From: Escherichia phage B9-1
Length of the DNA stretch: 64,000 nucleotides
Sequence record: OQ420740.1
Reading direction: 5' to 3' (one strand)
The first letter of the stretch is position 1. Each line of letters begins with the position of its first letter. The notes below the pieces were generated by a model, which saw only the letters and a list, made by a program, of their open reading frames with translations, searched no databases and was not told the DNA's origin. Positions 14,929 through 43,710 of the stretch are shown piece by piece. Both the position numbers and the translations under genes were made by a program.

Positions 14929-15597
14929 ATGGCTGTAGCTTATCCTACAATACCAATCCCAGATCTTGAAGATGCAGAAACAGTCTTGAGTGATGACTTC
15001 TTGGTTGTCAACCAGACTGACGGGACAAGAAAGGCTAAGATTGATGATGTTGTCAATGATCTTAGCATTACTAAAATAGTTTATTTCACAGAGGGCGGTT
15101 ATCTTAAGAGCAAGAAGGATTTTGCTTATGATCCGGAAACTAAGCGCTACTACACATGGAATGGAGATTATCCTAAAATAATCCTCCCGGATTCTACTGT
15201 AGAGGGTGCCGGAGGTGTGTCTGCAAAAGCATGGTCTGTTTTTGGAGAGCTTGCTGCAACTTCTTCAGGTAGGATAGTTGATTACGGCTCTATTGGTGGT
15301 CAACTTGACATGGATCTTGACGTTGCAGACACGTTTAAAGTTCGGCTCACTTCAAACACCACAATCTCTTTTGAAAATCAAACAGAAGGGCTCGACGGAG
15401 TGGCAAGAACTATAACTGTATGCATAACGCAGACCTCGGGTGGTAACAAAGTTTATTGGCCTGACAATGTTAAATGGGCCTACGGAAGAGATCCTATCCT
15501 AACATTTACAGCTGGTGCAACAGACATTTTCAAGTTGGAAACATATGATAATGGACTAACTTGGTACGGGGCACTGATCATCGCAGGAGCTATCTAA
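14929..15597 (+). CDS. tail fibre-related protein sharing an N-terminal domain with the 1479-aa fibre
   Basis: N-terminal about 100 aa align by eye with N-terminus of ORF 18232 (DDFLVVNQTDGTRKAKIDDVV vs DDYLVVQQPDLTRRVKIGDVV; FTEGGYLKSKKDFAYDPE vs FKEGGKLNGPMDFAYFEE). Confidence 0.5.
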   Translation: MAVAYPTIPIPDLEDAETVLSDDFLVVNQTDGTRKAKIDDVVNDLSITKIVYFTEGGYLKSKKDFAYDPETKRYYTWNGDYPKIILPDSTVEGAGGVSAKAWSVFGELAATSSGRIVDYGSIGGQLDMDLDVADTFKVRLTSNTTISFENQTEGLDGVARTITVCITQTSGGNKVYWPDNVKWAYGRDPILTFTAGATDIFKLETYDNGLTWYGALIIAGAI

Positions 15598-15598
15598 G

Positions 15599-18196
15599 AT
15601 GCGTATTCAACACAACATTGATAACGTATTTCAGATGATCGAGGGGCACAGGAAGTGCCTCGATAACAACACAGGTATTACCAATCTCCCTACACAGAAC
15701 AAACTGGTAAACCAGGATGGACTTATAGCGTCAGGTTGGTCAGGAAGTAAGATAAACAATGATTGGGCAATGCATGAGTCCCAAGCTGTGTTGATTCTGG
15801 GATACATTGAGGCATACAGGGCATCAAAAAGCGATTTTTATCTAGACAGGGCCAAAGAGGCTTGGGAAGCCTACAACAGTCATCTTCTGGGCGTATATGC
15901 AGTAGAAAGTAAAATGCAAAGATTGTCCCACTACCCGTTATCCACAGATGGGGTTCCATCGCATGGTGGGTTTAAAGATGTGGTTGTGTCTTTTAACAAA
16001 GGTAGAGGAAAAATCCCAGCAGGATCCCCGACATGGGGAGAATACTTGGACAAGGCTTTTCAGGCGTATAACGGTGTTTTAGGAAGAAACACTGTAGACT
16101 CTGATGTTTACGGCGGCACAGATGCTAATCCTAATTGGACAACTTCCGGATTAAGTTGGTGGGTTGAGTGGTATATAGCATGGGATGGTAACCGCTATTG
16201 GGCCAACGGTAGCATAGCCGACAGTGGTCATACGTCTGCAGAGTTCGGCACAATCCAACTGCAAGATAAGGGTGTTACAGGCAACCATAAGGTCACCTAT
16301 TGTGTGAGATTGCCTCAAGAGCAGGGAGGATCGGTGATACCTGCTGGATCCCCTGTAATTGTAAATCCTATAAATGTGGTTGCAGACAATCAAGCCCCAG
16401 AGTTAGACGGGGAAGAGATGTGGTGTGACGCTTGCTATCAACTCTATACCTTGACAGGTGAGGAAAAGTATTACACCGCGTTTAAGCAGTCTTACAACAA
16501 GCTGCTTAATTTCAGTGATATAAATGCCTACGACAAACTGTTTAGAAAAACCACGTTAATTAAGGCACCGTTCACGGATGGTACTTGTCTCGTCGCAGGA
16601 ACAGTTCCTGTCATGAGTAGGGACAGTGACGGGTATATCAATTTTAGAATGAACGCTCGCCAGCCTTGCGAAATAATCCAAAAAGGGACTACATACAAAA
16701 TAGGCAGAGATGCTGAAATTGTTATGAATTTCGGAGGGGAAGGGGTTCTGTTCCAGCCACATTTCATCCTTAATGATGGCAACAATAACAAAAAACAGTA
16801 CAGAATAGGTGTCCCTTTCGGAGGAGCAGAGGTAACAGAAACAGTTGCCAAGGTTACTGATTTTGTAGAGGTGGTTGGTAAAGACGGTAACCCATATCTC
16901 TTGCCAAAAGAGGAAAACATTGCCGTAAGCGGTGGCGCTAGTGTTAGTATGCAGTATGATACCGACATTTACAACCACTCTGACAACTTCACCCGTTGCA
17001 ATATAGTAAAAGGCAAAGTAACTTTCAATTTTGGAAGAGAGATTTCTTTAAACTCAGTAACTTATCGATCAGATGATGAGATGGTAAGGGTCAAATTTCT
17101 TGACAAAGACCGTTGGTTATGGTATGCTGATCTATATGCCACTAATGGACAATGGATAACAGAAACTCTTACTCTGGGAGATTTTAAACTAGACCCTACA
17201 CAACCTCATCACACCGAAGAGGAGATTAAACCTTTCTTTGCTAACACCAAAGGGATCACCTCCGTAGATTTCAGTCTGAGCGACAGGCAGATAGGCAATG
17301 GCTTGTTTGATCTGTATTGCGTCAACACACTGCCGCAATTTTATATTGCTGATAGGGATGCTTACCTGATCTGGTTTAGTGTATGGATGGCAAGCAATAC
17401 AGAATCAACCGCTAAGGTTGGCGATTGTTATGTCAGAAACTACAAGCAAGGTGCATACAGGCACACGCCGGGTGTGTTCCCTGCCGGAAAGGTGATAGAT
17501 AAGGAAAATTATCTCTTAGAGGAAAGGCCAAGTTGGCCCTATCCTGGTATGCAATACCCAGCAGTCTACTGCATGGGTGCAGAAAACATAGACCGCCATA
17601 GATTGTCAAATACAATAGGCTTTCTGTATGACTCTCAAGTCTGGTATAACAATACATTTAAGACAGAGGGTCCAGTTGCCTCACGTTATGTATGGCAGAG
17701 AGGTAATGAAGGGTTGACTGGTTGGTGGGAGATGGTAGATAACTCTAAACTCCAGTCAAGATCTTTTGTTGCTGCGTGCCGCACAATATATGAGCTAAAG
17801 AAACATAAAGAGCCTGTTGATGAAAGACTATTCCTGTTCTGCCAGAAATGGGCATGGTTCCTCAACAGATTCCAGTCATCCCATTCAGGAAATTTGCCTA
17901 CAGACTTTAACACCTCTGGTGGATACTCTTATCAAGATAGAGGAGATAGGATGTGGGTGGTAGGTGAATGGCTTGCAGGTTGCTGCTGGCTAGGTCTGTG
18001 CGGGTATTCAGAAACAATACCTCAAATAGATATTGTTGTAGAAGCCTGTATGAAGCTACTGCAAAAGCACCACTTTATTAATGGGGATAATGTTTTAAAT
18101 GGCTGCTGGGCAGTTTCTGATCCGGTAGGCTATCACTCTGGCGAAATCCTTCGCGGTCTTGGCCTTTATGCTCAATACCGTGGATTGTACCTTTAA
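15599..18196 (+). CDS. large tail-associated protein, candidate polysaccharide-degrading enzyme
   Basis: 865 aa, Trp/Tyr-rich; segments such as AVLILGYIEAYRASKSDFYLDRAKEAW and CDACYQLYTLTGEEKYYTAFKQSY resemble helical-hairpin motifs of (alpha/alpha)6 glycosidase folds; coupled to the upstream adaptor-like ORF. Confidence 0.4.
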   Translation: MRIQHNIDNVFQMIEGHRKCLDNNTGITNLPTQNKLVNQDGLIASGWSGSKINNDWAMHESQAVLILGYIEAYRASKSDFYLDRAKEAWEAYNSHLLGVYAVESKMQRLSHYPLSTDGVPSHGGFKDVVVSFNKGRGKIPAGSPTWGEYLDKAFQAYNGVLGRNTVDSDVYGGTDANPNWTTSGLSWWVEWYIAWDGNRYWANGSIADSGHTSAEFGTIQLQDKGVTGNHKVTYCVRLPQEQGGSVIPAGSPVIVNPINVVADNQAPELDGEEMWCDACYQLYTLTGEEKYYTAFKQSYNKLLNFSDINAYDKLFRKTTLIKAPFTDGTCLVAGTVPVMSRDSDGYINFRMNARQPCEIIQKGTTYKIGRDAEIVMNFGGEGVLFQPHFILNDGNNNKKQYRIGVPFGGAEVTETVAKVTDFVEVVGKDGNPYLLPKEENIAVSGGASVSMQYDTDIYNHSDNFTRCNIVKGKVTFNFGREISLNSVTYRSDDEMVRVKFLDKDRWLWYADLYATNGQWITETLTLGDFKLDPTQPHHTEEEIKPFFANTKGITSVDFSLSDRQIGNGLFDLYCVNTLPQFYIADRDAYLIWFSVWMASNTESTAKVGDCYVRNYKQGAYRHTPGVFPAGKVIDKENYLLEERPSWPYPGMQYPAVYCMGAENIDRHRLSNTIGFLYDSQVWYNNTFKTEGPVASRYVWQRGNEGLTGWWEMVDNSKLQSRSFVAACRTIYELKKHKEPVDERLFLFCQKWAWFLNRFQSSHSGNLPTDFNTSGGYSYQDRGDRMWVVGEWLAGCCWLGLCGYSETIPQIDIVVEACMKLLQKHHFINGDNVLNGCWAVSDPVGYHSGEILRGLGLYAQYRGLYL

Positions 18197-18200
18197 CATA

Positions 18201-18220
18201 GGGGGCTGTTTGCCCCCTTT
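18201..18220 (+). terminator. weak terminator / attenuator hairpin
   Basis: Stem GGGGGC / GCCCCC, loop TGTTT, short T run (TTT) only. Confidence 0.3.
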
Positions 18221-18231
18221 CAGGAGAAAGA

Positions 18232-21200
18232 ATGGCTGATATTAAAGTTGTCAGAATTGAATCTCTTCCTGCCACTACCGCAGTGACAGAGGATGATTAC
18301 CTGGTTGTTCAACAACCAGACCTGACCCGTCGTGTGAAAATTGGCGATGTTGTCCATGTGGATGGGACTGTTTCTCATGTAATCTCCTTTAAGGAAGGTG
18401 GTAAGTTAAACGGCCCAATGGATTTTGCCTACTTCGAAGAGGAAGATCTATACCTGCGTTGGAAAGGCGAATTTCCACACACTGTTCCTGCACTGTCTTC
18501 ACCATATTCTGATGGTGGGATTACCGATGCTGCATGGATGGTATATACAGACCCGTCCTTAAGGGAGGAGCTGGAGTCTACCATTGGTGCGTCTATGATT
18601 ATGACAGCCGAAGGGCAGTCTGTCCAGGATGTAATGGATGTTACTGTTCAGACAGCCAACGATGCTAAAGCACTTGCACAGCGGGTAGATTTTGGTACAG
18701 TACATACTGTGGGCGATGTTGTTCACCTTGTCAACTTTGTTGGCCCTGCAGTTATTGAAGAGGGACGAACCACTAACTATCCTTCCGTAGCAGCTGGTGA
18801 AAAATTTCTGAATGGTGTGGTATCTCGTCGTGATACTACAACTGTTGATGGTATTTTCCGTGGCGCTACTTCCGGAGCCATGTATACCATTGCAGTAACA
18901 AACGGTGTGGTAACAACAAAAAGAATAGCCCTTCGTGATGAATTTAAACGCCTGGAGGCAAATAATCCAACAAGAACAGTTATCCGTGCTGGGGATGATG
19001 TAAACACAGCAGGGTACTTGCAGCTTGATGCAACAGGCCGTTGGGGTATGTGGAACCAACAGACAGCTTCGTGGCAACCTCTTGCTATAGAGCAGGGCGG
19101 CACAGGAGCTAGAGATGCCGCAGGTGCACGCATTAACCTAGGTGCTTTCTATAAGCAACGTGCAGCCCTTGAGGCAAATTTCAATATCAATAACCTGACT
19201 GGTAATCAGGATGGTGTATACTACCAGCCTATGACTGCTAATGCAACTGAGGCAAATGGTTACCCTGCGGGTTCTGGTGCGGGTCACCTAATTGTTTGGC
19301 AGAACAATGCTAACGGCGGCACAGGCTGTCGTCAGGAATACTACCCATTCTCTAACGTAGATGTTTGGTATTTGAGAACCTATCAGGCCAACACAAACCA
19401 GTGGACTGCATGGCAGCCGATGGTCAGACCTCGTAACGATGAGACCTTTAGATCGCACATCGGTCTTGGGTCTAGGAATTCTCCTACCTTCGGGCACCTT
19501 TACTTATCTCAAAGTTCTGCTGATGTCAAGTCGGCATCTGGCATTGTTAACGGGGACAAGTACAGTGCTGACGGTGTCCTTGAGCATGGGTATAGGATCT
19601 ATTCCGAGGTAAGAAACGACAATAAGGCGTGGTTAACAATCCACCTGCACAAAGGTGCAAAAGGATCTGAAACTCATAGATATTTAGGTTTCCGCGAAGA
19701 CGGCGTATTAGACTGCCCTAAATACATGCAGGTTGGGGATCTTACTGGTCAGCTGACAAACTGGGGACTCGGAGAATGGATCCGTAGTTCAGGAGCAGAA
19801 AGAGGGTTCTGGGGATCCAAGAAAGCCGCCAAGATGGTCATCTGGGATGGCGGGATGGATGAATCCGGTAATGGTACTCTAGAATGGGGTGTTTATAACA
19901 ACCGGAAGGCCAAGTGGGAACCTTTACCTCAAGCCGCAGGTGGTACTGGGGCTACAACTCTAGCAGATGCTCAGAATCTGTTCAAAGTTCCTATAGCAGC
20001 AGGTGTAAAAGACTTCTTAACACTGCCAAGAACCGCAGGAATGGAAGATGGGAAATACTACCCGATCATCGTCAGAACAGATCCGTACTATGCTCCAGCA
20101 ACTGGCACTGATATTACCATAGTTACCAGATCGTCATCTGGAAATGACCCTATGAACTGTGCTACCTTACAGTGTCACTATAGAACTGGAGGATGGACAG
20201 ACAGAGGAGGCTCTTTCTACGGGGTAGTAAATTTCTACCAGAATGAAAAAGCAATTCTTGGGATGGTTGCTCCAACAAGGGGTAAACAAGAGTATGTTGC
20301 TTTCTATGTGGAGGCTCGTGCTTTCCCTGTCAGCATATACGCAAGTAGAAATGTTGTCGAAGTGTTTACCAGAGAGCAAGATTATCAGGTCGGCTCTGTA
20401 ACAAACAATCAGGACGGTGTTAAGTTCGTTTCACCTCTCCAGTCGGCAGACTTGAATCTTGCTATTCTTGGAGATAACAATACAAACACCAGACCTATTG
20501 TTGACTTCAAAGGCACCTCTGGGTTCTACACTGGCGGCGGCACACAGTGGCACTATATAGGCACTGCTGAGCGCTATGCAGTGATGAGCAAAATGAACAT
20601 GCCAAAAGTCGAGCTATGGGCAGACGGTCTTGACTATTTGTGCTACGGCAGTCCTAGAAAGGCGTTATTCTCTAATGCAGGATTCCAGTGTGCATCAGAC
20701 GGGACAGAAGACCTGACTAACGGTACGTTTACCTCTAAATGCGGTAATGGTGCTGGCCTCAAAGGACAGGCAGAGTTCAGATCTACTCCAGAAGCTGGTC
20801 AAGTTATTGTTCGTGATGTTGTAGGTTCTGCTCACAGATTCTACAATTTCAACAAAGATGGTACTTTCTCAGCACCGGGTGGTTTTGTATGTCATACTGG
20901 TGCAGATTGGAACAATCAGTTCGGGAATAATAATCCGTCCAAAATACTGGCTGGCAATGTCAACGGACCTGAAGGTTCAATGGTTGTTGGCGGGTTGTCT
21001 GTGGCATTTTCTGGAAACTATGCTTTCCAGATGGCAGGCCGTTTAGATCAGCTGTACACCCGTTCCATAGAGCAGGGTAACCACAGAGCGTGGAACAAAG
21101 TTATTCAGCACCGTGGTCAAGGGTTGGGTACTAGTGACCTTAACGATTACAAAGCGGATCGCGAAGGTATTTACCATCAAGAGGCAAATGCCAACGCCAC

Positions 21201-22671
21201 AGCGGAAAGACACTATCCACCAGGGCAGCAGATGGCTGGTACGCTGATCGTGCTTAGAAACTCTGCCAACGAGGGTACTGGGTGTGTCCAGATATATAAA
21301 ATGTATCTTGGTGGGACGTGGGAAAGGTATTATAATAACACTGGCAGTGGGATGAACTGGAGCCCTTGGAAGAGAACTAGCTTCCCAGAAAGTACAACTG
21401 CCCCAGTTATGCCAGATCTGTGGCTACCTTTAACCTCTAACCTGAAACCTGTGTTAGGTGAGGGGGAGATGATCTTCTCCAGACCTTCTACCGCAACCTA
21501 TTTCACTAAGCGTGGTGTTATGGCTGTTGCACAAGCAAACCAACCACGTTTCGAAAGAGATGGGCTGCTTATTGAAGGGCAAAGGACAAACCTAATGCTT
21601 AATAGTGAGGACCCAAGTAAGTGGGGGGCAAGTCAACAGATCACTGTTGGTAGCACTGTAACAAACACTAATGGAACAAAAGGTGCAAGATTTACAGTAA
21701 ACACCATATCCGGTGTAGAAACAACAGCGTTAAACCTAGCTACGGTTCCAGCCACCAGGGGTGCCGATGTAACAGGTGCTGAGAAATTCTGTACTGGGTC
21801 TATTATTGCAAGGGGCGGTAAAGCTCACCAAAGACTGCGTGTAAGATTCGACATGTACGACGGGTCCACCACAGTATTTCAAGGTGATGCTTATGTCAAC
21901 CTGTCAACACTTGAAGTTAAAACAACAGGTGTCGCAGCTGGGAGAATTAAAGTAAAAGCTGAGAGATGGCAAACAGCCGGACCTGCTTGGATAAGAGTTG
22001 TTGCTACGTTTGAGGCAGTGGACTCTGACATGAATATTGGGTGCCAGTTCCAGATTGCCCCACCGGATGGTTCTCAACATGCCGTAGGGGATTGGGTTGA
22101 CGTCGCAATACCTCAGTTTGAGTTAGGATCTTGTGAGTCCTCGTTTATCCCTACAGGGTCTTCACCAGTGACTAGGGCAGCAGACCTTTGTAAATTCCCA
22201 ATGACTGATAATTTAGCACCTAGACCGTTCACCATCGCCGCTACGGTGGATGCCAACTGGAGAGGTTGGGGAAAAGCTCCTAACGCAGCTCCTAGAGTTA
22301 TTGATACAGAGGGCCACCAATCAGGTGCTGCATTTATCATGGGATTTGGCTCTGCAGCAAATATTGCAGAAGATGGTTATCCATATTGTGATATTGGCGG
22401 TTCAAACAGACGTGTCTATGAGATGGCTAAAACACGTAAATTGAAAATTGGGTTCAGGATAAAAGATGACGGTAAAACCTGCTCTTTTGCTAACGGATTG
22501 GTGAGTACGGAAACGCAATCTTCTTGGGAATTCCTGGCAGGAGGCGCTCTCATCCGTCTCGGAGGTCAAACGGCGACAGGTGAAAGACATTTGTTTGGTC
22601 ATATTAAAGATGTAAGAGTTTGGAACTCTGCATTGACCGACACCCAGCTTATGATGGAGAGTGTTGAATAA
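18232..22671 (+). CDS. long tail fibre protein with internal repeats and LamG-like C-terminal domain
   Basis: 1479 aa; N-terminal domain shared with ORF 14929; two copies of a 60-aa repeat (19237-19425, 21181-21377); two QGGTGA motifs; C-terminus ...HLFGHIKDVRVWNSALTDTQL resembles the LamG/concanavalin-like signature. Confidence 0.6.
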   Translation: MADIKVVRIESLPATTAVTEDDYLVVQQPDLTRRVKIGDVVHVDGTVSHVISFKEGGKLNGPMDFAYFEEEDLYLRWKGEFPHTVPALSSPYSDGGITDAAWMVYTDPSLREELESTIGASMIMTAEGQSVQDVMDVTVQTANDAKALAQRVDFGTVHTVGDVVHLVNFVGPAVIEEGRTTNYPSVAAGEKFLNGVVSRRDTTTVDGIFRGATSGAMYTIAVTNGVVTTKRIALRDEFKRLEANNPTRTVIRAGDDVNTAGYLQLDATGRWGMWNQQTASWQPLAIEQGGTGARDAAGARINLGAFYKQRAALEANFNINNLTGNQDGVYYQPMTANATEANGYPAGSGAGHLIVWQNNANGGTGCRQEYYPFSNVDVWYLRTYQANTNQWTAWQPMVRPRNDETFRSHIGLGSRNSPTFGHLYLSQSSADVKSASGIVNGDKYSADGVLEHGYRIYSEVRNDNKAWLTIHLHKGAKGSETHRYLGFREDGVLDCPKYMQVGDLTGQLTNWGLGEWIRSSGAERGFWGSKKAAKMVIWDGGMDESGNGTLEWGVYNNRKAKWEPLPQAAGGTGATTLADAQNLFKVPIAAGVKDFLTLPRTAGMEDGKYYPIIVRTDPYYAPATGTDITIVTRSSSGNDPMNCATLQCHYRTGGWTDRGGSFYGVVNFYQNEKAILGMVAPTRGKQEYVAFYVEARAFPVSIYASRNVVEVFTREQDYQVGSVTNNQDGVKFVSPLQSADLNLAILGDNNTNTRPIVDFKGTSGFYTGGGTQWHYIGTAERYAVMSKMNMPKVELWADGLDYLCYGSPRKALFSNAGFQCASDGTEDLTNGTFTSKCGNGAGLKGQAEFRSTPEAGQVIVRDVVGSAHRFYNFNKDGTFSAPGGFVCHTGADWNNQFGNNNPSKILAGNVNGPEGSMVVGGLSVAFSGNYAFQMAGRLDQLYTRSIEQGNHRAWNKVIQHRGQGLGTSDLNDYKADREGIYHQEANANATAERHYPPGQQMAGTLIVLRNSANEGTGCVQIYKMYLGGTWERYYNNTGSGMNWSPWKRTSFPESTTAPVMPDLWLPLTSNLKPVLGEGEMIFSRPSTATYFTKRGVMAVAQANQPRFERDGLLIEGQRTNLMLNSEDPSKWGASQQITVGSTVTNTNGTKGARFTVNTISGVETTALNLATVPATRGADVTGAEKFCTGSIIARGGKAHQRLRVRFDMYDGSTTVFQGDAYVNLSTLEVKTTGVAAGRIKVKAERWQTAGPAWIRVVATFEAVDSDMNIGCQFQIAPPDGSQHAVGDWVDVAIPQFELGSCESSFIPTGSSPVTRAADLCKFPMTDNLAPRPFTIAATVDANWRGWGKAPNAAPRVIDTEGHQSGAAFIMGFGSAANIAEDGYPYCDIGGSNRRVYEMAKTRKLKIGFRIKDDGKTCSFANGLVSTETQSSWEFLAGGALIRLGGQTATGERHLFGHIKDVRVWNSALTDTQLMMESVE

Positions 22672-23003
22672 TGAATACTTTTACCCTTGGGTTTACTGGT
22701 AGGGAGGATTTTAACGGTTTCATGGACGAAATCGGCTTTTACGAGAATGAGGTGTTGCAAAACACCCTTCTTGTAGAGGTTGTCGGGTTCATTTACACAG
22801 AAACTGAAGACACTTATGAGGCCGAGGATGAGTTTGGCAACATGGTTGTCTACCCAGTTTGCGAGAAAAGTAAATTGTTTTATGTCAACGTTCTGGCTCT
22901 GGACGAAGATGCAGAAAATATCATCTCTAAAAGCGGAAAAATTGTAGATCCGATAAGGTTGAACATGTTCGACCCATCAGTATCTACCTTGGAAGCACTT
23001 TAA
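22671..23003 (+). CDS. hypothetical small acidic protein, possible fibre chaperone
   Basis: 110-aa ORF overlapping fibre stop (TAATGA), followed by terminator. Confidence 0.4.
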   Translation: MNTFTLGFTGREDFNGFMDEIGFYENEVLQNTLLVEVVGFIYTETEDTYEAEDEFGNMVVYPVCEKSKLFYVNVLALDEDAENIISKSGKIVDPIRLNMFDPSVSTLEAL

Positions 23004-23016: not shown

Positions 23017-23047
23017 GCCCTCGCTTCGGCGAGGGCTTTTTGTTTGT
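23017..23047 (+). terminator. rho-independent terminator
   Basis: Stem GCCCTCGC / GCGAGGGC, loop TTCG, then TTTTTGTTTGT. Confidence 0.75.
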
Positions 23048-23108: not shown

Positions 23109-23699
23109 ATGTTTTTATGGGAAAGACCTAGATATCTTCCAGATATTAGATTGGAGTTGCTGGCAGATATTGTTACGTTTAAAAGCCCGTTTACAGGTAA
23201 GACGCAAAAAGTAACCTATGCCACGCCCAACTGGAAAGGAACTTTGACGGTTTCCAATATAAGTGAGTCCCAGCTATTGGAGCTTAAAAGTTTTGTTGAT
23301 CAGGTTTACAAAGATGGAAACATTTTTCTTATCAAGGCTTATGGTCATTCAGTTACTTCCAATGAGCCAATCGCTCTAGGACCAACTGGTAATGACGATT
23401 TTTTGAAGACGGTTGGTTGGGAACCGAACAGAGATATAGTCAGGGCTGGGGATAAAATATCTGTCAATGATGAGTTGAAAGTTGTGACATCCTCAGTGCG
23501 AAGTGATGGTGTGGGGGCAGCTGTTATAAACATATCACCAAGACTTAGAAAACCTATTGCCGCAGGGGATACTATGAAGATAATAACTCAATCTCCGAAG
23601 GGTAGATTTCATATCAGGGATCTCTATAAGATTAAGCAAAAGGTTGATGCTATGCAGAAAGGTGATAATATAGTTATCAACTTTTTTGAGGATTTCTAA
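23109..23699 (+). CDS. distal tail protein (first gene of lambda/GTA-like tip cassette, candidate)
   Basis: 196-aa ORF with RBS GGAGG; first of a 196/183/141/1279-aa set whose sizes and order resemble GTA g12-g15 and lambda M-L-K-J. Confidence 0.4.
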   Translation: MFLWERPRYLPDIRLELLADIVTFKSPFTGKTQKVTYATPNWKGTLTVSNISESQLLELKSFVDQVYKDGNIFLIKAYGHSVTSNEPIALGPTGNDDFLKTVGWEPNRDIVRAGDKISVNDELKVVTSSVRSDGVGAAVINISPRLRKPIAAGDTMKIITQSPKGRFHIRDLYKIKQKVDAMQKGDNIVINFFEDF

Positions 23700-28516: not shown

Positions 28517-28525
28517 CCTTTAAAG

Positions 28526-28550
28526 CCCCGCTTCGGCGGGGTTTATTTTT
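28526..28550 (+). terminator. rho-independent terminator
   Basis: Stem CCCCGC / GCGGGG, loop TTCG, then TTTATTTTT. Confidence 0.75.
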
Positions 28551-34947: not shown

Positions 34948-35994
34948 GTGATGACTAAACCAGTTATCCCTCTTGATATTTGGGCCAATCAGGATGTTGT
35001 GCTTGAAAATACGGGAGAATTGAATAAGTCCCAACCAAAAAAAGAAGAGAGATTGAAAGGTTGGGATATGACACAAAGAGTGGCATGTGAAGTTGTTAAC
35101 TTTGAACTTCACATGCTTTCTGCGTGGTTAAAGCATTTAACAGAAGATGTTGTCCCAGGATGGGATAATAGATTCTTAAGGGTCACTAATAATCTGGCAG
35201 ACGTTCCAGACAAAGCTGCTGCACGTCAAGTTCTCAATGTATACTCGCCTGAAGAAATGGATGACCTTTATGTTGACAAGACTGGAGACACAATGATCCA
35301 GACTCAAACTTTAGGTCTTCAAAGAATTGAGTTTGCATCTGCGTCAACAGACAATGCGGCGATATACACCACCATAACTCCAGACAAGACGATGATGGAT
35401 TTCTGGATTATGGACAACATCGGTGGCGCTGACGGCACAGACCTTGATGATCCTTCTCACCAAATAGACGGTTTCCGTTGGAGATTTCAACCTTCTGGTG
35501 GGCAGCCTGTGTTTTCGGCTATGAAGCTCAATGCTATAACTGCCAACCGTGCAAGACTGGCTATCCAAGGAAATCTTGAATGCAATGATGCAAAAAGCTC
35601 CTCTGCAAATGCCAATGCGGTAACGATACCAAGAGCCACTGTTAATGGACAACAATCCTGCGGCAGCGCTCAAATAGGTGGAAGAGTAGATTGTAACGAT
35701 AAAACCGCCAGGGGTCAATATGCAACAGTTGGTGGGAGAAACGTGGTCCGCAGGGTAAATGGTAGTAGCGCAGATAGCAGTGGTAACCTTACTATCCCTA
35801 TGCCTAGTAGGGGTGTTGAAGATGTAAGGATAGCAAACCGTTTCAGAACCACCTACAGAGAATCAAGAGTATACCCTGGGCATGTAATGTGCTCCGGCAA
35901 TTACGCCTATAAACACCCGTATCAAGGTGACTATTGGACTGGTGCTATTCAAAAATTTGTAAACGGTCAATGGATCACGATATCTTATGCTTAA
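34948..35994 (+). CDS. tail fibre protein, paralogue B
   Basis: 348 aa; N-terminus MMTKPVIPLDIWANQDVVLENTGELN parallels MSKPSFPLEIWAEEDQVLPNTHRQN of paralogue A; C-terminus IQKFVNGQWITISYA. Confidence 0.55.
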   Translation: MMTKPVIPLDIWANQDVVLENTGELNKSQPKKEERLKGWDMTQRVACEVVNFELHMLSAWLKHLTEDVVPGWDNRFLRVTNNLADVPDKAAARQVLNVYSPEEMDDLYVDKTGDTMIQTQTLGLQRIEFASASTDNAAIYTTITPDKTMMDFWIMDNIGGADGTDLDDPSHQIDGFRWRFQPSGGQPVFSAMKLNAITANRARLAIQGNLECNDAKSSSANANAVTIPRATVNGQQSCGSAQIGGRVDCNDKTARGQYATVGGRNVVRRVNGSSADSSGNLTIPMPSRGVEDVRIANRFRTTYRESRVYPGHVMCSGNYAYKHPYQGDYWTGAIQKFVNGQWITISYA

Positions 35995-36003: not shown

Positions 36004-36270
36004 ATGAAATTAACTCAGTTTTTATGGGGGTTGGTTGCGGCATCTGATGACCCTACGAAAGTGTCCCAATCTAAGCTATGGTCAAACATAGGCATGGCAG
36101 TGATGACTGGGGTGTTTATTCATATGGGGTACAATGATACGCTTCCTGAATGGTATGCGTGGATATACGCACCTTCGGTAGCTTGCCCCCAGCTTATTAG
36201 CAAATTCATCTCGCTCCGGTGGGGTTGCCAGCACCCTGACCACGTTAAAAACGAAGAGCAAAAAGCTTAA
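36004..36270 (+). CDS. small hydrophobic protein (holin-like topology, speculative)
   Basis: 88 aa; two hydrophobic stretches (LWSNIGMAVMTGVFIHMGY; WYAWIYAPSVACPQLISKFISL) and a charged C-terminus (HPDHVKNEEQKA). Confidence 0.4.
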   Translation: MKLTQFLWGLVAASDDPTKVSQSKLWSNIGMAVMTGVFIHMGYNDTLPEWYAWIYAPSVACPQLISKFISLRWGCQHPDHVKNEEQKA

Positions 36271-36279
36271 GGAGAAATC

Positions 36280-38025
36280 ATGGCGCAAGACATGACAAGC
36301 TTTGAGCAGGCGGTAGATCAAGTAATTGTTGATTCTGAACGTTTGCACTTGGTTGTCAACGGCAACGCTGTGGATGAAGTTGTCGTAGAGGATGGGACCA
36401 CTATCCCTACGGTACGAAAAGCCATGCTTGACAACCTTTATTTTAAAACGCCACCGATCCCTTGGGCGTATGGTGCATCCACAACAGTTTTTAACCAGTT
36501 GTATGAGTTTAAAGGGGATACAGGCACTCAGTGGTGGTACGCCCCCGCAGCATCAAAATCTAACCCGGTTAGGATGCCAGCAGATCCTTCACAATCTCCG
36601 AACTGGAGATTATACACCGATTCTGCAGTAATGGCAAAATACTACGCAAAACTTAACAGCCCAAGGTTCGAAGGTGACCCGAGAGTACCTACACCTCCGA
36701 TGGATGATAAGTCAGAGTCTATAGCAAACACAGAGTTTGTTGTTGACTATGTGGATAGCATATTTAAAGCCATGGAGGGGATGAAAGTTACTGTAGGATC
36801 TTTGGTGGTAAAAGGTCTTACAGAACTTGCCAACACCATAGTTGGGGGCACCCTTACCTTACACGGACCTGTTAATGGAGCAGATTCTACTGCACGCTTC
36901 AGGAACCTAATCCTTACGGCAAATACTTCTACACTAACTTTTGCGTGGAGCGATCCTAAGCATGCAGACTGGAGAAGCACAGAGCTGCAACCTCATGAAG
37001 TATCAACTCACAGAGTTATAGCTGACACTATAACTTCTGGGAAACCAGTGGCTAATAACAACGATGTGCATTTTGATGGTCTAGGTAATAACTTTTTTGA
37101 CTACGTGTACATTCGTGGTAATGCCATGAAGGCAGCCACCGAACCGACATTGCAGGTTGATGGGACCACTAGGGTTAAGAACCTTGAGGTGACAGGCACC
37201 GTTACAGGGATAACCTACTCTGTAGATGGCACCATGATCTACCCTAGCTATATTGAAAGCACGGGAGATGCACTGATCAATGGAGATTTAGAGGTTGGTG
37301 GATCTATAGTCATTCGTGGCACAGCATCTGTCCAGAACATATCTTTAAATACTCTGAGGGTGAATGAGCGTGCCACTTTTGAAGGAGAGGGGCTTACAGC
37401 CAACAAAGGTGTAATTACCGAGCTGACAACCACCACTCTAACTGCAACAACTGCAAACTCTGAAAACTGCAACGTTACCAGAAACTTGCAGGTAAATGGA
37501 GATGTTAGTTTAAACGCAGCAGGGACGGGCACTACCTACCTTCACAACCTTGAAATATCAGGTACAGTGACTGGGTGGCTGCCAGACTTCTCTAATGTCA
37601 ACTTTGTCTGTAATGGCATTAACTCCAGTGGCAAGATAACCACCTCTCAAGAAATTGAAGCTGGTAAAACTATTACTGCCCCTGCTTTCCATGCAGGGAA
37701 GGTGGAGTTTGACTTAGAGGAGGCTGACGCATCTAGTGGGACATGGACACCTAACGGGCAGGCCAATATGTATGTTGTCCACGCGAAAGGGGATTTTACA
37801 ATAGGGCAATGGCCTGGAACATCGGCTGAAGATAAACCTTACCCGTTCACTGCAATCATCTATGTCATTCAAGATGCTGTAGGCCACAACGTGACTTTAC
37901 ACGATAAATATGCCATACTGTCGGCTACTCCTGTTATTAACAACAAAGCCAACAGTGTCACCTTGCTACAATTGACATATTGTGGTGTTGGTGATATTGT
38001 GGATGTGGTTATTGCACAACGTTAA
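36280..38025 (+). CDS. tail fibre protein (581 aa)
   Basis: RBS AAGGAGAAATCATG; Thr/Gly/Asn/Val-rich beta-type composition with short repeated motifs (LTATTANSEN, GTVTGITYSVDG, ISGTVTGWLPD); within fibre cluster. Confidence 0.5.
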   Translation: MAQDMTSFEQAVDQVIVDSERLHLVVNGNAVDEVVVEDGTTIPTVRKAMLDNLYFKTPPIPWAYGASTTVFNQLYEFKGDTGTQWWYAPAASKSNPVRMPADPSQSPNWRLYTDSAVMAKYYAKLNSPRFEGDPRVPTPPMDDKSESIANTEFVVDYVDSIFKAMEGMKVTVGSLVVKGLTELANTIVGGTLTLHGPVNGADSTARFRNLILTANTSTLTFAWSDPKHADWRSTELQPHEVSTHRVIADTITSGKPVANNNDVHFDGLGNNFFDYVYIRGNAMKAATEPTLQVDGTTRVKNLEVTGTVTGITYSVDGTMIYPSYIESTGDALINGDLEVGGSIVIRGTASVQNISLNTLRVNERATFEGEGLTANKGVITELTTTTLTATTANSENCNVTRNLQVNGDVSLNAAGTGTTYLHNLEISGTVTGWLPDFSNVNFVCNGINSSGKITTSQEIEAGKTITAPAFHAGKVEFDLEEADASSGTWTPNGQANMYVVHAKGDFTIGQWPGTSAEDKPYPFTAIIYVIQDAVGHNVTLHDKYAILSATPVINNKANSVTLLQLTYCGVGDIVDVVIAQR

Positions 38026-38034
38026 TATATCTGA

Positions 38035-38059
38035 CCGCTCCTGACGGGGCGGTTTTCTT
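38035..38059 (+). terminator. terminator-like hairpin
   Basis: Stem CCGCTCC / GGGGCGG (one G-T wobble), loop TGAC, then TTTTCTT. Confidence 0.45.
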
Positions 38060-38073
38060 ATCTGGAGAACACA

Positions 38074-41000
38074 ATGCTTCCAATCCCTTTGCTAAAACTT
38101 GGTCGTCATTTCCTCGATAAGAGGGGTGGAGTTAAGGAACTTGCTGTTCTGTCATACCCAATAGACAACAGTGACGGTACAAGCACTACAGTAGCTTATG
38201 TAAATAGCTTAGCTATACTTTTTGACGACGGTCAGCTTAATATTACTGGCTATAACAAGTTCGGGGAGTGTCGCACTGGGGATCGTAACCCTATAAACTA
38301 CCCGAGCGAGACGGCCTGGAATGTCGATCATGTGTGGAGAGCAGACCGTGCGTTTGTGATCCGGACTTTTGATAACCAGTTTTTCTACATCGGCTGCACT
38401 GCAGGTCTTATCGGATCCACTGCGGCAGGTGGTAACGATGTTTGCGTAAACGAGTGGACACCTCTTCCGGAACAGATTGTTCAAGGATTGCACCTTGACA
38501 CCCACCCAGAGCGCCTTATCGAGGTAATGGGTGGTATTAACAACACTGTTTGGGTTATGGCAGAGGCTGAGGGTGACGGCATTTTACACCTGTACGGGTC
38601 TGGTAACAACACCTACGGATCTTTACATGTAGATAAGAACCAGCATGCAACTCCTGTAAAGATTGGTGAAACATCAGAAAATCCTGAAACAGGCCCTTGG
38701 AAAAACCCAAGTATCAACTGCGAGGTGCATGACAACTCTGTTATTTTCGGTGGTCCTAGAGGTTTCTGGATTGCTGGGTACGACTTTCTGAGAAACAATA
38801 GTAGAAACACTCTCGTTTGGCCTCCTGCTCAGATTACCCGTGACGATTTGAGAGGAATTCCTGCAGATGAGGAGTGGAAAGGGTTCATGTGCGGTCCGAA
38901 TGGGGCAGTGGTTGCAACACAAAGAATGCACAGACCTGATGACCAACAACTTGTTAACGTATTTTATGGTCAAAACGTTTGGGGAGATGATACCTGGCGT
39001 GCTTTGAATATAACCTACACCCATGAGGTGATAATGGCTCGTGGGTACGGCACAAGTGGCATTTTCTTCAACAATGGTACTAAGCAGTATCGTGGCTTCT
39101 CTCGAAACCTGTGCAACGATATTGGCGCACAATCTGCAAACAATAATCCCCGTGCCGATTTTGTTCATTACCAGGCCCTTGCTACGGCCAAATATGTTGA
39201 GCAACGTTTGCCAGTTAGCTGGACAGAGAGTGTTTATTTCCAAGGCATCCATAGAGAAGGTTTTTTAGGGACCTTTACTGTTGTTAATGGTAAACTTTGG
39301 TGGTCAGGTATCCCAAGGGGAAGTTTTGCAGGCTCTAATAACCTGTTTGGCGGTAGACTTAATAGTCAAGGGTTCACAGAGGTTCCTGAGAATTGGTATA
39401 AAAATGTCCCAGTAGATAGTTGGGGTGTTGATGATATTTTTGACGTTAACGGTGTTAGCAGCGTTAGCAATATTTACATTGGTGACACGGTCAAGATGAA
39501 ATTGAAGCCTCAGCCAGAGGGGGCTACGTTCATTATTGACAAGATTGAGCTGGTAAATGCTGCGGGTACGGTTGTTACAGATGCAAATTACCAATTCTCC
39601 ACCAACTGGAACCACGGCGGGGCCAACGAAGTTGTTGTTACTCAGTATAACAGGAATGTTAACAGACGTGGCCTGTACTCTGTAAAAATAACCTATCATG
39701 ACAAGCATGGCACAGGAAGAACTCACACGACAAGGACTTTGAACTGGAACACCATAGTTCCTGCGTATCCTTCTGACGGTAAGTGGCATACCGTTGGTAG
39801 AAACAAGCAGTTCCATGTTAACGATACTGTATACTTCGGGCTGAATGGGACTCAGCCTGCGGTAGAAGGAGATACATCGTATATGGTCCGACTCCACAGA
39901 ATGGATGCTGGATCAGTCACCTATGATGTTACCCAAGAGATTTATGATCAGAGACGAAATACCTACAACAACTTAGTGCAGACACAGGCCGTATGGGAGT
40001 TCAACCCTAACGGCAGAGGCGGTAAAATGTTGCAGGTTAACGAGCAAAACGGAACGTCGTTGACTGTCCACGAACACCCAGACCCTTGGCCTGATCCTGG
40101 AAAACCTCACCCAGGTGCTCGTACACTGAAAATTGTCAGCCATGATGCAGGATATTTCGGAATACGCTGGGAAGCCACAGTAAGATATGCAGACGGGACA
40201 ACAAACAACATAGGGATTACACTTGGAGGCACCAGTGAAGATAGCTCTCTGAAAATTGCCTACACCCCTAGGGGCATCTCTATTGATAATATGGATGTTG
40301 TTCGCAATGGTTACGGCGATGTGAATGTCAAAGTTACTCTTGGCGAACATCTTGGTGGGGAAAGGATCATCATGTATGCCTTTGATCATGACCCGCGAAC
40401 CAATGGAACTTATGCAAATCAGGCATGGAGTTACCTGATAAATGCACCTGAGCCGAATACTAAAGAGTTCTACTACGGTATGAAGCGAGATGTATGCAAG
40501 AAAACAGGAACACATGACTGGATTGCTATCTGCGTTAAAGATGAGCGCACAGCTTGGGATGAGCCTGTTAATAGATGGTTCATAGGTATTCCTACCAGAA
40601 GCGATAAGTATATCGCAGAATACATTGTGTGCATGGGCGGTACCAACCTAAATATGTGTTGGAACGAAGATGCAAACAAATACTCTGATTATGACTATAT
40701 GAGAGATTACTCTTGTAATCAGTGGTTTAACCAATCAACAGGGTATCCTCCACGACAGGCGAGAGTAAACCCTGCAATCTTTACAGATACGCAGGTTTTC
40801 TTGACAAAACAGGCCAACGAGGTTCAGACCTTCAAGAACAAATACGACCCTAACAAGTGGTTTTATAACTGTTATGGCGCATTTTTCTGGGGTCCTGGCG
40901 AACTGCCTAATGGAGGATCTTGCTTCGAGGCTGCAACTTACGCCAGTGACAGGTTCATGGGGCAGGTTAAGAAGTACAAGATAATCCCAGGGCCTGAAAC

Positions 41001-43710
41001 TTTAGGCAACGCTGTTGACCCATATATCATCATGACAGCACTAAGATCGAACATGGACGGAACATCCATATCTATGCAAGTTCCAGTAACAAACGGGTAC
41101 AAACGTGTTGTGATGATCATTAAGTGCGACTTAATAGGTAAGCAAGTTCTTGCAGAAAACGGAACCTCAACACATCTATTCGAGACTGCTCTGCATTATC
41201 AGTTTGCTGATTCACCTTTTGCAGGGGATAAGAGAATATCTGATACAGACAACACTCGATGCAAGAAATTTATGCTTGGTGGTGGATGGTGGTGGTATGA
41301 ATTTGATTTAACAGACAAATTCACTGACACGTCTAAAGTGGTGACAGGGCTTCGTCTAGATCTTGGCGAAAACATGCACAAAAGTGTTTGTGATGGCACC
41401 TACGGTGACCCAACAATCTACTTAAAGTATGTCTCTTTTGAGCATCCGGAAGATGTTGTTTACGGTCCAAAACTGAGATTGTTTGGCAGTTGGATTGCAA
41501 AAGACAGGGTAGGCATGGGTAAAAAGGTAAGAGGGTTCTTGGTTGATGCAGGAACAGAAGACATGCTGGTTAATGCAGTGTGGCCTGAATTACCTGGGAC
41601 TCAGTGGGATAACTCAGCCAAGTCCATAAACTGGTTCAACATTCACAGAGCTATGTGGACAACTAACTGCTACCTGTGGAAAGAGTTGAATGACGGCGCT
41701 TTCGGGTTTACAGGTGGCAGAAGAATGGCAATCATTTGCTGGACAACGCTGCAAAGATGTTATGACCATGACTACGAGATTGGGGGTAGGGCATGGAAAA
41801 ATATTAGGGATAGAATCATAACTAACTTCGCAGACCCTAATGGTGGTGGAGCGTATGGCTTCGACTGCAGCAGGCTCATCCATTTGAACGGGTCCTCTGC
41901 ATATAAGAAAGAGGGTTACTCTGGATCTATGATTGAGTGGGGCCTGGTGAAAGATGCTCGCGTATTGATGGGTCAACAACTTGCTGCTGCAATAGGACCT
42001 AACGCAGTGCAGTCTGTTAAACCAGCGTGGTTCGATATCCCAATATGGTCATCTGGAACACCAGGAACTGCGGCAATCAACCCTACCACTGGGGATCTGG
42101 AAATCTCTTGGGAGGACTTGAAGCAGGTTGGTGGCTGGGATAAGACAGGCTACCAGGTACAATGGTGGAGATCTGACGGATCGTTAGCGGCTGATGAGTT
42201 TGTTAAGGACAATTTCTACACTATGTCCTCTGCAAAAGCACAGCAATTGTTTGGTCAGGCAACTCCGTCAACGATCACCATGTCCATGTGCTGTAAAGAC
42301 AACAGGACTGGAGCCCTGGGACCAAGGGTTGCTAAAGTTTTCTCAGGTATTAAATGGAATCTCCCTGTTCAAAGTGTTTCATGGAAGCAAATAGGTGATA
42401 ACAAGCTGCTGGTTACTCCTGCCTGTCAGTTCAACGCAACTCTTAACGTTGATCCTGCTGTTGCGGCAAACTCAGCTAAAGCTTCTGACTTCTCTGTGTC
42501 TAACACTGCTATGGCAGATGTGAGGAAGATTGATACACTGAATGCCAGAATTACCTGTAAAAACACTTATGGCACATTCCAGATCATCAACAACTTCACA
42601 GATGCTGATTCTAAGGTAGTGAGGACAGCAAGCCAGACTATGCAGTTGGGAACTCTGGCATACTCTGCCTTGATCACTGAACAATCTCCTACCCTTCAGG
42701 GTGGGGGTGTTGGTAAGTTGATCACAACACCTGTGTGGAAGCCAAATGAGTGGGTTGTGTTTGATTTGACTGTAGACTTCTCCAGTGACAATAACTGGAC
42801 ATGGGTAAGGAATTGCTTGTCACAGTTGATGGGTGGTCCAAGCTCTGTTAGTGATAGCCACGACTCTACTGACCCGAGCGTGTTCCAGGTGGGTAAAACT
42901 CACCCAGAAACTGGGGCACAGTTGCCTGACAGGAAGTATGCTTTGGTTTGCATCTCTTACGGAAAAGCAGATGTCACCTTCTCAGGGACGCACACTTATA
43001 ACGGAACTTACAACTTCTCAAGGAAGTATAGTCTCAAGGCTGGTAACATTATAGATGAAGTTGGTGCGTTGTATAACCCAGGTAACGGCATAGGGATTGT
43101 GGGTGGTAAACTGCAGATGCAGGAACCTTCTATTACCCCTTCCAATGTGTCTGGGATTAGAAAGACTTGGGAAAGCAGTAATACCAACATTGCAACAGTG
43201 GATGCTACCACAGGGCTGGTAACATTTAAAGCCCCTGGTAATGTCACTATAAAGTTTGTAGTTACTGATGATGCAGGGCGCAAAACGTCTTCAACATCTT
43301 TTACTGTCAAACAGATGACACCACAGTGGAGAATGTGGATAGGTACAGCAACAAACGGGGCATACCCTAATCCGGCAGGTACTTCTGGTATGAAGACTTT
43401 CTCTACAAGCAAACCGATGGAGTACGGCAGCGGTCCTAAGGTAGGGCAGATGGTGTACTTTGGTGCGTATATTCCTGAAATTATAGGGCTTCCGAGAAGT
43501 CAGCTTCAGTTGCTGTTTGGGGCTGGTGTTGACGATCTTGCCACTTTCGGGTATAGCGACAACATCGAGGCTGCAAGGAGTTCAGGATGGGTAGGGTTCA
43601 GAATGGAGTCTGGAAAGGAAGGCAGGATTCTAGGGACAGCCTCTATAGGTGTTATGTTCCCTGGTGACCAGCAGTATCGTCTGGAAGCCTACGCGACTTT
43701 CTCTCTTTAA
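38074..43710 (+). CDS. giant virion-associated protein with RCC1-like repeats and C-terminal Ig-like (Big_2-type) domain
   Basis: 1878-aa uninterrupted ORF; N-terminal 400 aa carry recurring G-x-N-x-x-G motifs (YNKFGECRTGD, LYGSGNNTYGSLHV, VFYGQNVWGDDT, GSNNLFGGRLNSQGF); segment at 43141-43312 (IATVDATTGLVTFKAPGNVTIKFVVTDDAGRKTSSTSFTV) matches Big_2 pattern. Confidence 0.55.
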   Translation: MLPIPLLKLGRHFLDKRGGVKELAVLSYPIDNSDGTSTTVAYVNSLAILFDDGQLNITGYNKFGECRTGDRNPINYPSETAWNVDHVWRADRAFVIRTFDNQFFYIGCTAGLIGSTAAGGNDVCVNEWTPLPEQIVQGLHLDTHPERLIEVMGGINNTVWVMAEAEGDGILHLYGSGNNTYGSLHVDKNQHATPVKIGETSENPETGPWKNPSINCEVHDNSVIFGGPRGFWIAGYDFLRNNSRNTLVWPPAQITRDDLRGIPADEEWKGFMCGPNGAVVATQRMHRPDDQQLVNVFYGQNVWGDDTWRALNITYTHEVIMARGYGTSGIFFNNGTKQYRGFSRNLCNDIGAQSANNNPRADFVHYQALATAKYVEQRLPVSWTESVYFQGIHREGFLGTFTVVNGKLWWSGIPRGSFAGSNNLFGGRLNSQGFTEVPENWYKNVPVDSWGVDDIFDVNGVSSVSNIYIGDTVKMKLKPQPEGATFIIDKIELVNAAGTVVTDANYQFSTNWNHGGANEVVVTQYNRNVNRRGLYSVKITYHDKHGTGRTHTTRTLNWNTIVPAYPSDGKWHTVGRNKQFHVNDTVYFGLNGTQPAVEGDTSYMVRLHRMDAGSVTYDVTQEIYDQRRNTYNNLVQTQAVWEFNPNGRGGKMLQVNEQNGTSLTVHEHPDPWPDPGKPHPGARTLKIVSHDAGYFGIRWEATVRYADGTTNNIGITLGGTSEDSSLKIAYTPRGISIDNMDVVRNGYGDVNVKVTLGEHLGGERIIMYAFDHDPRTNGTYANQAWSYLINAPEPNTKEFYYGMKRDVCKKTGTHDWIAICVKDERTAWDEPVNRWFIGIPTRSDKYIAEYIVCMGGTNLNMCWNEDANKYSDYDYMRDYSCNQWFNQSTGYPPRQARVNPAIFTDTQVFLTKQANEVQTFKNKYDPNKWFYNCYGAFFWGPGELPNGGSCFEAATYASDRFMGQVKKYKIIPGPETLGNAVDPYIIMTALRSNMDGTSISMQVPVTNGYKRVVMIIKCDLIGKQVLAENGTSTHLFETALHYQFADSPFAGDKRISDTDNTRCKKFMLGGGWWWYEFDLTDKFTDTSKVVTGLRLDLGENMHKSVCDGTYGDPTIYLKYVSFEHPEDVVYGPKLRLFGSWIAKDRVGMGKKVRGFLVDAGTEDMLVNAVWPELPGTQWDNSAKSINWFNIHRAMWTTNCYLWKELNDGAFGFTGGRRMAIICWTTLQRCYDHDYEIGGRAWKNIRDRIITNFADPNGGGAYGFDCSRLIHLNGSSAYKKEGYSGSMIEWGLVKDARVLMGQQLAAAIGPNAVQSVKPAWFDIPIWSSGTPGTAAINPTTGDLEISWEDLKQVGGWDKTGYQVQWWRSDGSLAADEFVKDNFYTMSSAKAQQLFGQATPSTITMSMCCKDNRTGALGPRVAKVFSGIKWNLPVQSVSWKQIGDNKLLVTPACQFNATLNVDPAVAANSAKASDFSVSNTAMADVRKIDTLNARITCKNTYGTFQIINNFTDADSKVVRTASQTMQLGTLAYSALITEQSPTLQGGGVGKLITTPVWKPNEWVVFDLTVDFSSDNNWTWVRNCLSQLMGGPSSVSDSHDSTDPSVFQVGKTHPETGAQLPDRKYALVCISYGKADVTFSGTHTYNGTYNFSRKYSLKAGNIIDEVGALYNPGNGIGIVGGKLQMQEPSITPSNVSGIRKTWESSNTNIATVDATTGLVTFKAPGNVTIKFVVTDDAGRKTSSTSFTVKQMTPQWRMWIGTATNGAYPNPAGTSGMKTFSTSKPMEYGSGPKVGQMVYFGAYIPEIIGLPRSQLQLLFGAGVDDLATFGYSDNIEAARSSGWVGFRMESGKEGRILGTASIGVMFPGDQQYRLEAYATFSL

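Follow-up and report, generated by a model that had tools for sequence, protein, structure and literature searches.

The subject of this analysis is a block of tail genes at positions 14929-43710 of a 64,000-nucleotide stretch of DNA (the window) from Escherichia phage B9-1 (sequence record OQ420740.1). An initial annotation, made without database searches, had described the block as an exceptionally large host-recognition arsenal with at least eight fibre or spike genes. Its extent was confirmed, in that the block spans 28,782 bp (45.0% of the window) and the eight large open reading frames (ORFs) listed, of 865, 1479, 1279, 690, 346, 348, 581 and 1878 amino acids (aa), were all recovered on the + strand at exactly those lengths. 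The locus very probably comprises the baseplate-periphery and host-recognition genes of a Vequintavirus (rV5-like) contractile-tailed phage of Escherichia coli.

Gene content and family identity of the block

Each of the eight large ORFs matched a tail-category PHROG family (E ≤ 1e-160 in every case), and these are therefore real genes rather than chance ORFs; ORFs of 350-1900 codons in DNA of 44% G+C are, moreover, far beyond chance expectation. Together they account for 78% of the block (22.4 kb). Ten smaller genes occupy the remaining 5.9 kb: those for the adapter, the fibre chaperone, two wedge proteins and three tail-tip proteins, together with a small cassette ORF and two further small ORFs. 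Five terminator-like hairpins divide the block into modules A (14929-23003), B (23109-28516), C (28622-34860), D (34948-38025) and E (38074-43710), as listed in Table 1. Past the last hairpin the genes switch strand, as judged from the ORF list and GC skew. Scans for tRNA genes, Rfam families and tandem repeats found none. The tail sheath, tube, tape measure and baseplate hub genes of the phage itself lie upstream of the block, indicating a contractile tail.

Table 1. Features of the B9-1 tail gene block, in window coordinates
Feature	Position	Strand	Description or basis
222-aa adapter-type tail fibre protein (rV5 gp43)	14929..15597	+	Tail_spike_N, phrog_7760
865-aa tail protein (rV5 gp42, phi92 gp141 orthologue)	15599..18196	+	modelled six-hairpin (alpha/alpha)6 glycosidase-like barrel with beta-sandwich insert
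1479-aa variable lateral tail fibre (rV5 gp41 locus; RBPseg class TC12)	18232..22671	+	
110-aa ORF accompanying the lectin-head allele	22671..23003	+	phrog_1361, E 4e-25
Terminator-like hairpin closing module A	23017..23036	+	8-bp stem, 7 G-C pairs, then TTTTTGTTTG
196-aa Dit-like "distal tail protein" (rV5 gp40)	23109..23699	+	first gene of module B
183-aa tail protein (rV5 gp39)	23701..24252	+	second gene of module B
141-aa DUF6950 protein (rV5 gp38)	24252..24677	+	third gene of module B
1279-aa lambda-J-like central-tail-fibre homologue (rV5 gp37)	24677..28516	+	
Terminator-like hairpin closing module B	28523..28544	+	9-bp stem, 6 G-C pairs, T-run
Promoter-like site after module B hairpin	28560-28588	+	TTGACT-17-TAAAAT, upstream TG
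496-aa baseplate wedge subunit (rV5 gp36, phi92 gp145)	28622..30112	+	Pfam Baseplate_J, phrog_6
228-aa baseplate wedge protein (rV5 gp35, phi92 gp146)	30124..30810	+	phrog_4056, E 2e-103
690-aa glycan-binding-type tail protein, N4-type TIM barrel (rV5 gp34, phi92 gp142)	30810..32882	+	
346-aa short tail fibre 1 (rV5 gp33; RBPseg class TC1; phi92 gp147 = fibre III)	32895..33935	+	
194-aa tail fibre assembly chaperone (rV5 gp32, phi92 gp148)	33950..34534	+	Caudo_TAP E 8e-12, phrog_136
104-aa small ORF (rV5 gp31)	34546..34860	+	phrog_5345; membrane protein with 1 TMD in rV5 Table S3
Terminator-like hairpin closing module C	34870-34891	+	after the 104-aa ORF
348-aa short tail fibre 2 (rV5 gp30)	34948..35994	+	phrog_4465, E 7e-164
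88-aa small ORF (rV5 gp29, "membrane protein" there)	36004..36270	+	ORF list, rV5 annotation
581-aa wedge-anchored long-tail-fibre base (rV5 gp28)	36280..38025	+	phiTE match, phrog_4549
Promoter-like site	37972-38000	+	TTGACA-17-TATTGT, upstream TG
Terminator-like hairpin closing module D	38033..38054	+	9-bp stem, 6 G-C pairs
1878-aa giant protein (rV5 gp27)	38074..43710	+	RCC1-like start, Ig-like (Big_2) C-terminal region
Terminator-like hairpin ending the late structural block	43726..43747	+	9-bp stem, 6 G-C pairs, T-run

Family membership was established by DNA and protein comparison. Identity to phage vB_EcoM-ECP26 was 97.3% over positions 14929-38000 and 97.8% over 38000-44000. In searches, the first segment matched 127 phage records, with query coverage of at least 80% in 108, and the second matched 121, with such coverage in 107; nearly all of these records are Vequintavirus. 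The same genes occur in the same order and on the same strand in ECP26, EmilHeitz (Bas49) and the type phage rV5 (gp27-gp43). The 17 proteins compared were 96-100% identical to their ECP26 and EmilHeitz orthologues and 95-99.6% identical to those of rV5, the sole exception being the swapped tip of the 1479-aa fibre. Each sequence feature looked for as typical of a Vequintavirus locus was found, namely DNA identity with synteny, paired short fibres, an N4-like fibre and allelic variation. The last of these was concentrated in the three largest genes (1479, 1279 and 1878 aa), all other proteins being 96-100% identical; the 1279-aa gene falls into two allele groups, at ≥95% and 80-90% identity, and the 1878-aa gene is 80-95% identical in most matching records.

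Since parts of the block resemble siphophage genes, we also considered whether it might be chimeric through misassembly or derive from a bacterium or prophage. Nothing was found in favour of this explanation, and its probability is negligible given that the same gene order and junctions recur in >100 independently sequenced complete phage genomes and that base composition is uniform along the block. Among the matching GenBank records, 18 are named "Campylobacter phage" (MG065655, MG065662 and others), are unannotated and give Campylobacter jejuni as host; they match the locus at ~93% over its full length and probably represent E. coli Vequintaviruses with an incorrect host entry.

Domain composition of the five modules

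The first gene of module A encodes a protein with the Pfam domain Tail_spike_N (PF18668; E 3e-10), which is the N-terminal, branch-building domain of TSP1 of CBA120 (Kuttervirus) and of G7C gp66. This 222-aa protein belongs to a tail fibre family (phrog_7760, E 3e-118) and is related in its C-terminal half to phi92 gp140 (41% identity over residues 109-222). The same domain occurs at residues 46-103 of the 1479-aa fibre (E 3e-10), the N-termini of the two proteins are 38% identical, and PDB matches to the fibre were to tailspike N-termini. Given that this CBA120-type branching domain is present in both the adapter and the fibre, module A probably encodes a branched appendage.

Beyond its N-terminal branching adapter, the 1479-aa fibre ends in a lectin-like head allele of ~430 aa, with a weak Laminin_G_3 match at residues 1422-1472. 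The protein is 96.8% identical to the EmilHeitz fibre, which has the same allele and whose lectin-like head has been fitted into electron cryo-microscopy (cryo-EM) density (PMC12143355). By contrast, only residues 1-1049 have a counterpart in rV5 gp41 (91% identity); residues 1050-1479 are absent from rV5, where the fibre ends in a peptidase S74 domain in place of the lectin-like head. The 110-aa ORF that follows, the product of which is possibly a chaperone or tip partner, is likewise present in ECP26 and EmilHeitz and absent from rV5. Head allele and ORF were covered to at least 80% in 35 of 66 matching records. Residues 1060-1478 of the fibre also align with the C-terminus of a siphophage lateral fibre, JenP2 gp23, at 34% identity. 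A small ORF follows the homologous fibre gene in both phages, of 110 aa here and 92 aa in JenP2, the regions of similarity with their ORFs lying at window 21400-23003 and JenP2 10365-11899. To judge from these sequences, it looks as though myophages and siphophages share a fibre-tip cassette of lectin-like tip and small ORF.

Between the adapter and fibre genes lies that of the 865-aa protein. According to the predicted model, this protein is a six-hairpin glycosidase-like enzyme fold and not fibre-shaped: the (alpha/alpha)6 barrel that characterizes the six-hairpin glycosidase superfamily is present in the model. Sequence identity to the structurally matched enzymes was 8-14%, and the protein is a candidate enzyme by fold. 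A homologue search returned just six relatives, which limits the quality of the model, and a PDB sequence search returned no relative. The enzyme-like folds found in the block are this barrel and the TIM barrel described below; Pfam scans of the block proteins detected neither a pectate-lyase nor a beta-helix tailspike domain, and relaxed Pfam scans of the 865-, 581-, 346- and 348-aa proteins added nothing reliable.

Module B has the make-up of a siphovirus tail tip. Its four genes are colinear with, and similar in size to, gp17-gp20 of the Queuovirinae siphophage JenP2 (34, 38, 45 and 50% identity, respectively), and the module combines this order with the J Pfam domains of phage lambda. The Dit-like 196-aa protein belongs to phrog_1302 (distal tail protein, E 5e-49), the 183-aa protein, the start codon of which was placed by orthologue annotation, to phrog_2048 (tail protein, E 1e-67), and the 141-aa protein contains DUF6950 (E 6e-34); PDB sequence searches found no relative of these three. 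The 1279-aa protein contains Phage_Tail_Tip (E 2e-38), Ig_J_second (E 1e-30) and Ig_J, belongs to phrog_31 (central tail fibre J, E 7e-163) and matched lambda J (8iyk, E 4e-28) and an F2-pyocin fibre in the PDB. Its identity to JenP2 J was 50-53%. Homology to J is already recorded in the rV5 annotation; literature searches found no paper on the structural role of the Dit-J module and no high-resolution Vequintavirus structure.

In siphophages such a module lies immediately after the tape measure gene and forms the end of a non-contractile tail. By contrast, in B9-1 the tape measure gene (8796-11132) lies 12 kb upstream of module B, in a phage with a sheath and with its own hub and spike. The idea that module B is a complete siphovirus tail-tip unit, with a Dit-like protein, two small tip proteins and a J-like trimer, captured by a contractile-tailed phage and mounted on its baseplate is put forward tentatively and is rather unlikely; if true, the module would be a type of appendage without precedent among the myophage baseplates solved so far. 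A functionless relic of siphophage recombination, with no role in the virion, would agree with the presence of the phage's own tube initiator, hub and spike, with the absence of the module from the 90 kb of phi92 examined, and with the lack of density assigned to it in cryo-EM of the close relatives Bas49 and Bas54. Such a relic is nevertheless very improbable, given that none of the four ORFs is disrupted and that their identity to ECP26, EmilHeitz and rV5 is 96-99%, that the J-like gene is full length in about 120 Vequintavirus records and maintained as two allele groups, and that the module has its own terminator and a position among late genes. In addition, one of four gp37 peptides reported from rV5 particles is a good tryptic peptide (PMC3606486).

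Module C begins with two wedge genes, the products of which are 32% (496 aa) and 29% (228 aa) identical to their phi92 counterparts. The third gene encodes the 690-aa protein, which comprises the Pfam domains TIM-barrel_NCTSP (E 1e-79), NCTSP_N (E 7e-13) and Calx-beta, matches the structure of phage N4 Gp64 (9lc0, E 2e-24), and is 42% identical to phi92 gp142 and 98% identical to rV5 gp34. By analogy with related phages, this protein is proposed as a receptor-binding protein for a surface glycan, either enterobacterial common antigen (ECA) or N4 glycan receptor (NGR). Vequintavirinae require wecB, which was read as use of ECA through a conserved deacetylase-domain fibre (PMC8594841), and a 2026 preprint assigns the 690-aa family, exemplified by phi92 gp142, to NGR (bioRxiv 10.64898/2026.04.02.716166). 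The literature thus ties the NCTSP-type domain to ECA/NGR recognition in both the N4 and the Vequintavirinae groups. The N-terminal domain and TIM barrel are common to the 690-aa protein and N4 Gp64/Gp65, components of a non-contractile sheath. The B9-1 protein differs in its context, the baseplate of a myophage in place of the tail of a podophage, and in its extra N-terminal Calx-beta domain.

The Mu-type short fibres of 346 aa (module C) and 348 aa (module D) are paralogues (43% identity), with the Caudo_TAP chaperone gene, 31% identical in its product to phi92 gp148, between them. The 346-aa protein (phrog_4465, E 3e-171) matches phi92 gp147; its first ~108 residues match the short tail fibre of phiTE (9cuy_c, E 1e-19) and its C-terminus matches Mu GpS (5yvq). 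The 348-aa protein is 23% identical to phi92 gp147 over its full length (tblastn). The 104- and 88-aa ORFs are conserved in the fibre cluster, each adjoining a short-fibre gene.

The remaining large protein of module D, of 581 aa, is probably of RBPseg class TC8. Residues 8-325 match the long tail fibre of phiTE (9cuy_g, E 4e-79), the N-terminal helix bundle of which binds wedge 2A and the sheath initiator (PMC11972413). Its N-terminus is 46% identical to that of phi92 gp150 (first ~110 residues of gp150) and its C-terminus is 50% identical to that of phi92 gp151.

Module E is a single gene of 1878 codons. The strong hairpins on both sides and the promoter-like site upstream suggest that it is transcribed apart from the other fibre genes. 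The sole Pfam domain found was Big_2 (residues 1682-1733, E 1e-8), and PDB matches were to the immunoglobulin (Ig)-like region of intimin. The protein belongs to phrog_15684; its C-terminus matches phrog_215, "structural protein with Ig domain" ("head and packaging"), and some records annotate it as a lateral tail fibre. Over residues 1-225 the protein shares 36% identity with an RCC1-like region of the distant relative P0023, and G-x-N-x-Y-G-x-x-G motifs are repeated at the N-terminus (window 38074-38750); together, these features suggest an N-terminal beta-propeller. An AlphaFold2 model of residues 1-1200 (17-sequence alignment) was discarded before fold searching, its mean predicted local distance difference test (pLDDT) score being 43. 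The phi92 protein gp15, an unplaced fibre candidate in the phi92 paper, was considered as a counterpart of the giant protein and rejected, being a 114-aa protein with no match.

Distinct binding or enzymatic domains, as claimed by the initial annotation, could be recognized for six of the eight large proteins. The 346- and 348-aa proteins are paralogues of each other, and in the 1878-aa protein only the Ig-like domain and the inferred RCC1-like start were seen.

Virion evidence from relatives and the number of fibres

Published work on relatives provides evidence that proteins of this locus are virion components. Vequintavirinae have three lateral fibre sets and depend on the lipopolysaccharide (LPS) core through conserved short fibres (PMC8594841). 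In cryo-EM maps of Bas49 and Bas54, three fibres were fitted near the baseplate: TC1 (the short fibre), TC8 and the variable TC12 (PMC12143355). Three co-expressed fibre sets, each of six trimers, are borne on the wedge in both phi92 (PMC13450770) and Bas49/Bas54 (PMC12143355). In virions of W70 (Vequintavirinae), the phrog_4549 family, to which the 581-aa protein belongs, accounted for 996 spectra, the short-fibre N-terminus family was abundant, and three RCC1-like proteins were detected.

The mass spectrometry (MS) table for rV5 (PMC3606486, Additional file 5) lists only 19 proteins. Good tryptic peptides were obtained for gp41; those for gp34, gp37 and gp27 were few and mostly poor, gp27 being represented by three weak, non-tryptic, low-scoring peptides (PMC3606486). 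The text of that paper also claims gp30, 32, 33, 36, 42, 43, 45 and 49 by total proteomics, none of which is listed in the MS table (PMC3606486). A "proteomics" paper on E. coli O177 phages was rejected as virion evidence, its content being in silico only, with no virion data.

Several observations weigh against assigning the whole block to host recognition. Only three densities were seen in Bas49/Bas54 for nine annotated fibre genes, and the 865-, 690-, 1279- and 1878-aa proteins have no assigned density (PMC12143355). In rV5, the detection of gp27, gp34 and gp37 carries little weight, since non-structural proteins such as rIIA and RNA ligase are listed at similar peptide quality. The glycosidase-like fold of the 865-aa protein comes from a model with a mean pLDDT of 70, built on 7 sequences. 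The giant gene, intact in B9-1, carries an amber at codon 617 in ECP26 (ECP26 32147-37783), where a single TAT-to-TAG change splits it into two "Ig-like domain protein" coding sequences; the change either is a sequencing error or indicates that growth in culture does not require the full-length protein, which may accordingly be dispensable. Finally, the functions proposed for the B9-1 proteins are transferred from relatives by homology.

These observations bear on the alternative that not all of the large proteins are receptor binders attached to the virion, which we consider possible but unlikely. Here, the 865-aa protein might act as a depolymerase, either in solution or loosely attached, and the 1878-aa protein might be a decoration of the head, neck or tail, or an accessory adhesin with no role in host range. 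Such roles would fit the globular enzyme fold of the former and, for the latter, the "head and packaging" assignment of its C-terminus, a gene resembling its own transcription unit, the ECP26 amber codon and the quality of the rV5 gp27 peptides, as well as the unplaced state of both proteins in the Bas49/Bas54 maps. By contrast, the 865-aa gene lies between the adapter and fibre genes within one terminator-bounded module, and its phi92 orthologue gp141 is equally placed and annotated as a tail protein. The RCC1-like proteins of W70 virions also argue against this alternative for the giant protein, and the allelic variation of its gene among relatives suggests host-driven selection.

Attachment of the products to the baseplate periphery is the preferred reading. 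The count of eight fibres is nevertheless too high, given that the 865-aa protein is enzyme-like and that the 346- and 348-aa proteins form a paralogue pair. Eight independent fibres were likewise rejected on the grounds that cryo-EM of close relatives resolves three fibre types only. Most likely, the eight proteins build approximately three lateral fibre assemblies together with short fibres.

Comparison with other phages and significance of the locus

In phi92 (Justusliebigvirus), orthologues of block proteins were found in matching order (gp140, gp141, gp142, gp145, gp146, gp147 and gp148; tblastn identities of 29-42%), together with matches to the N-terminal gp150 anchor and to the gp151 ends. 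By its genes, the B9-1 system would follow the same logic of several co-expressed fibres on one wedge. B9-1 differs from phi92 in having no match to the endosialidase gp143 or to the catalytic part of the colanidase gp150. Conversely, four components are additional in B9-1 and gave no match in the 90 kb of phi92 compared, which include the whole tail gene block: the 1479-aa fibre, the 1878-aa protein, the Dit-J module and the second of the paralogous short fibres. With phiTE (Certrevirus, Vequintavirinae; 9cuy/9mjn), B9-1 shares the parts of the 581-aa (~320 residues) and 346-aa (~108 residues) proteins that dock on the wedge and sheath initiator. PhiTE differs in its distal receptor-binding parts, is flagellotropic and has far fewer fibre genes.

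Given the 96-100% identity of the B9-1 proteins to those of studied relatives, the following sequence of events can be inferred. The 690-aa protein would bind a conserved surface glycan, reported first as ECA and later as NGR, while the variable 1479-, 1279- and 1878-aa proteins and the glycosidase-like 865-aa protein may meet strain-specific O-antigens or capsules. The Mu-type short fibres would then bind LPS outer-core glucose irreversibly, and the 581-aa long-fibre base would be docked on the wedge and sheath initiator. In phi92, fibre III (gp147) swings on binding, and a signal passing via the wedge to the sheath initiator triggers contraction (PMC13450770); a short-fibre signal in B9-1 would be expected to follow the same route through wedge and sheath initiator to contraction.

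The earlier proposal of a multivalent adsorption apparatus is thus sound in kind, but overstated in number and exceptionality, such an apparatus being already established for the family. The view of the block as novel or exceptional was rejected in light of the >100 colinear genomes and of the multi-fibre "Swiss army knife", which is a published hallmark of the subfamily and of phi92. The block is real but ordinary and already known; phages that have been published and examined structurally contain a counterpart of each of its genes at 96-100% identity, so that it adds nothing new to that picture. What the analysis does provide is a cleaner parts list, with five terminator-bounded modules and the 865-aa protein recognized as a candidate glycosidase-like enzyme, and it singles out the Dit-J module and the giant RCC1/Ig-like protein as putative virion components that are unplaced in published maps. 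The rV5- and phi92-like multi-fibre apparatus underlies a broad host range, and phages of this type are therefore candidates for therapy and for host-range engineering.

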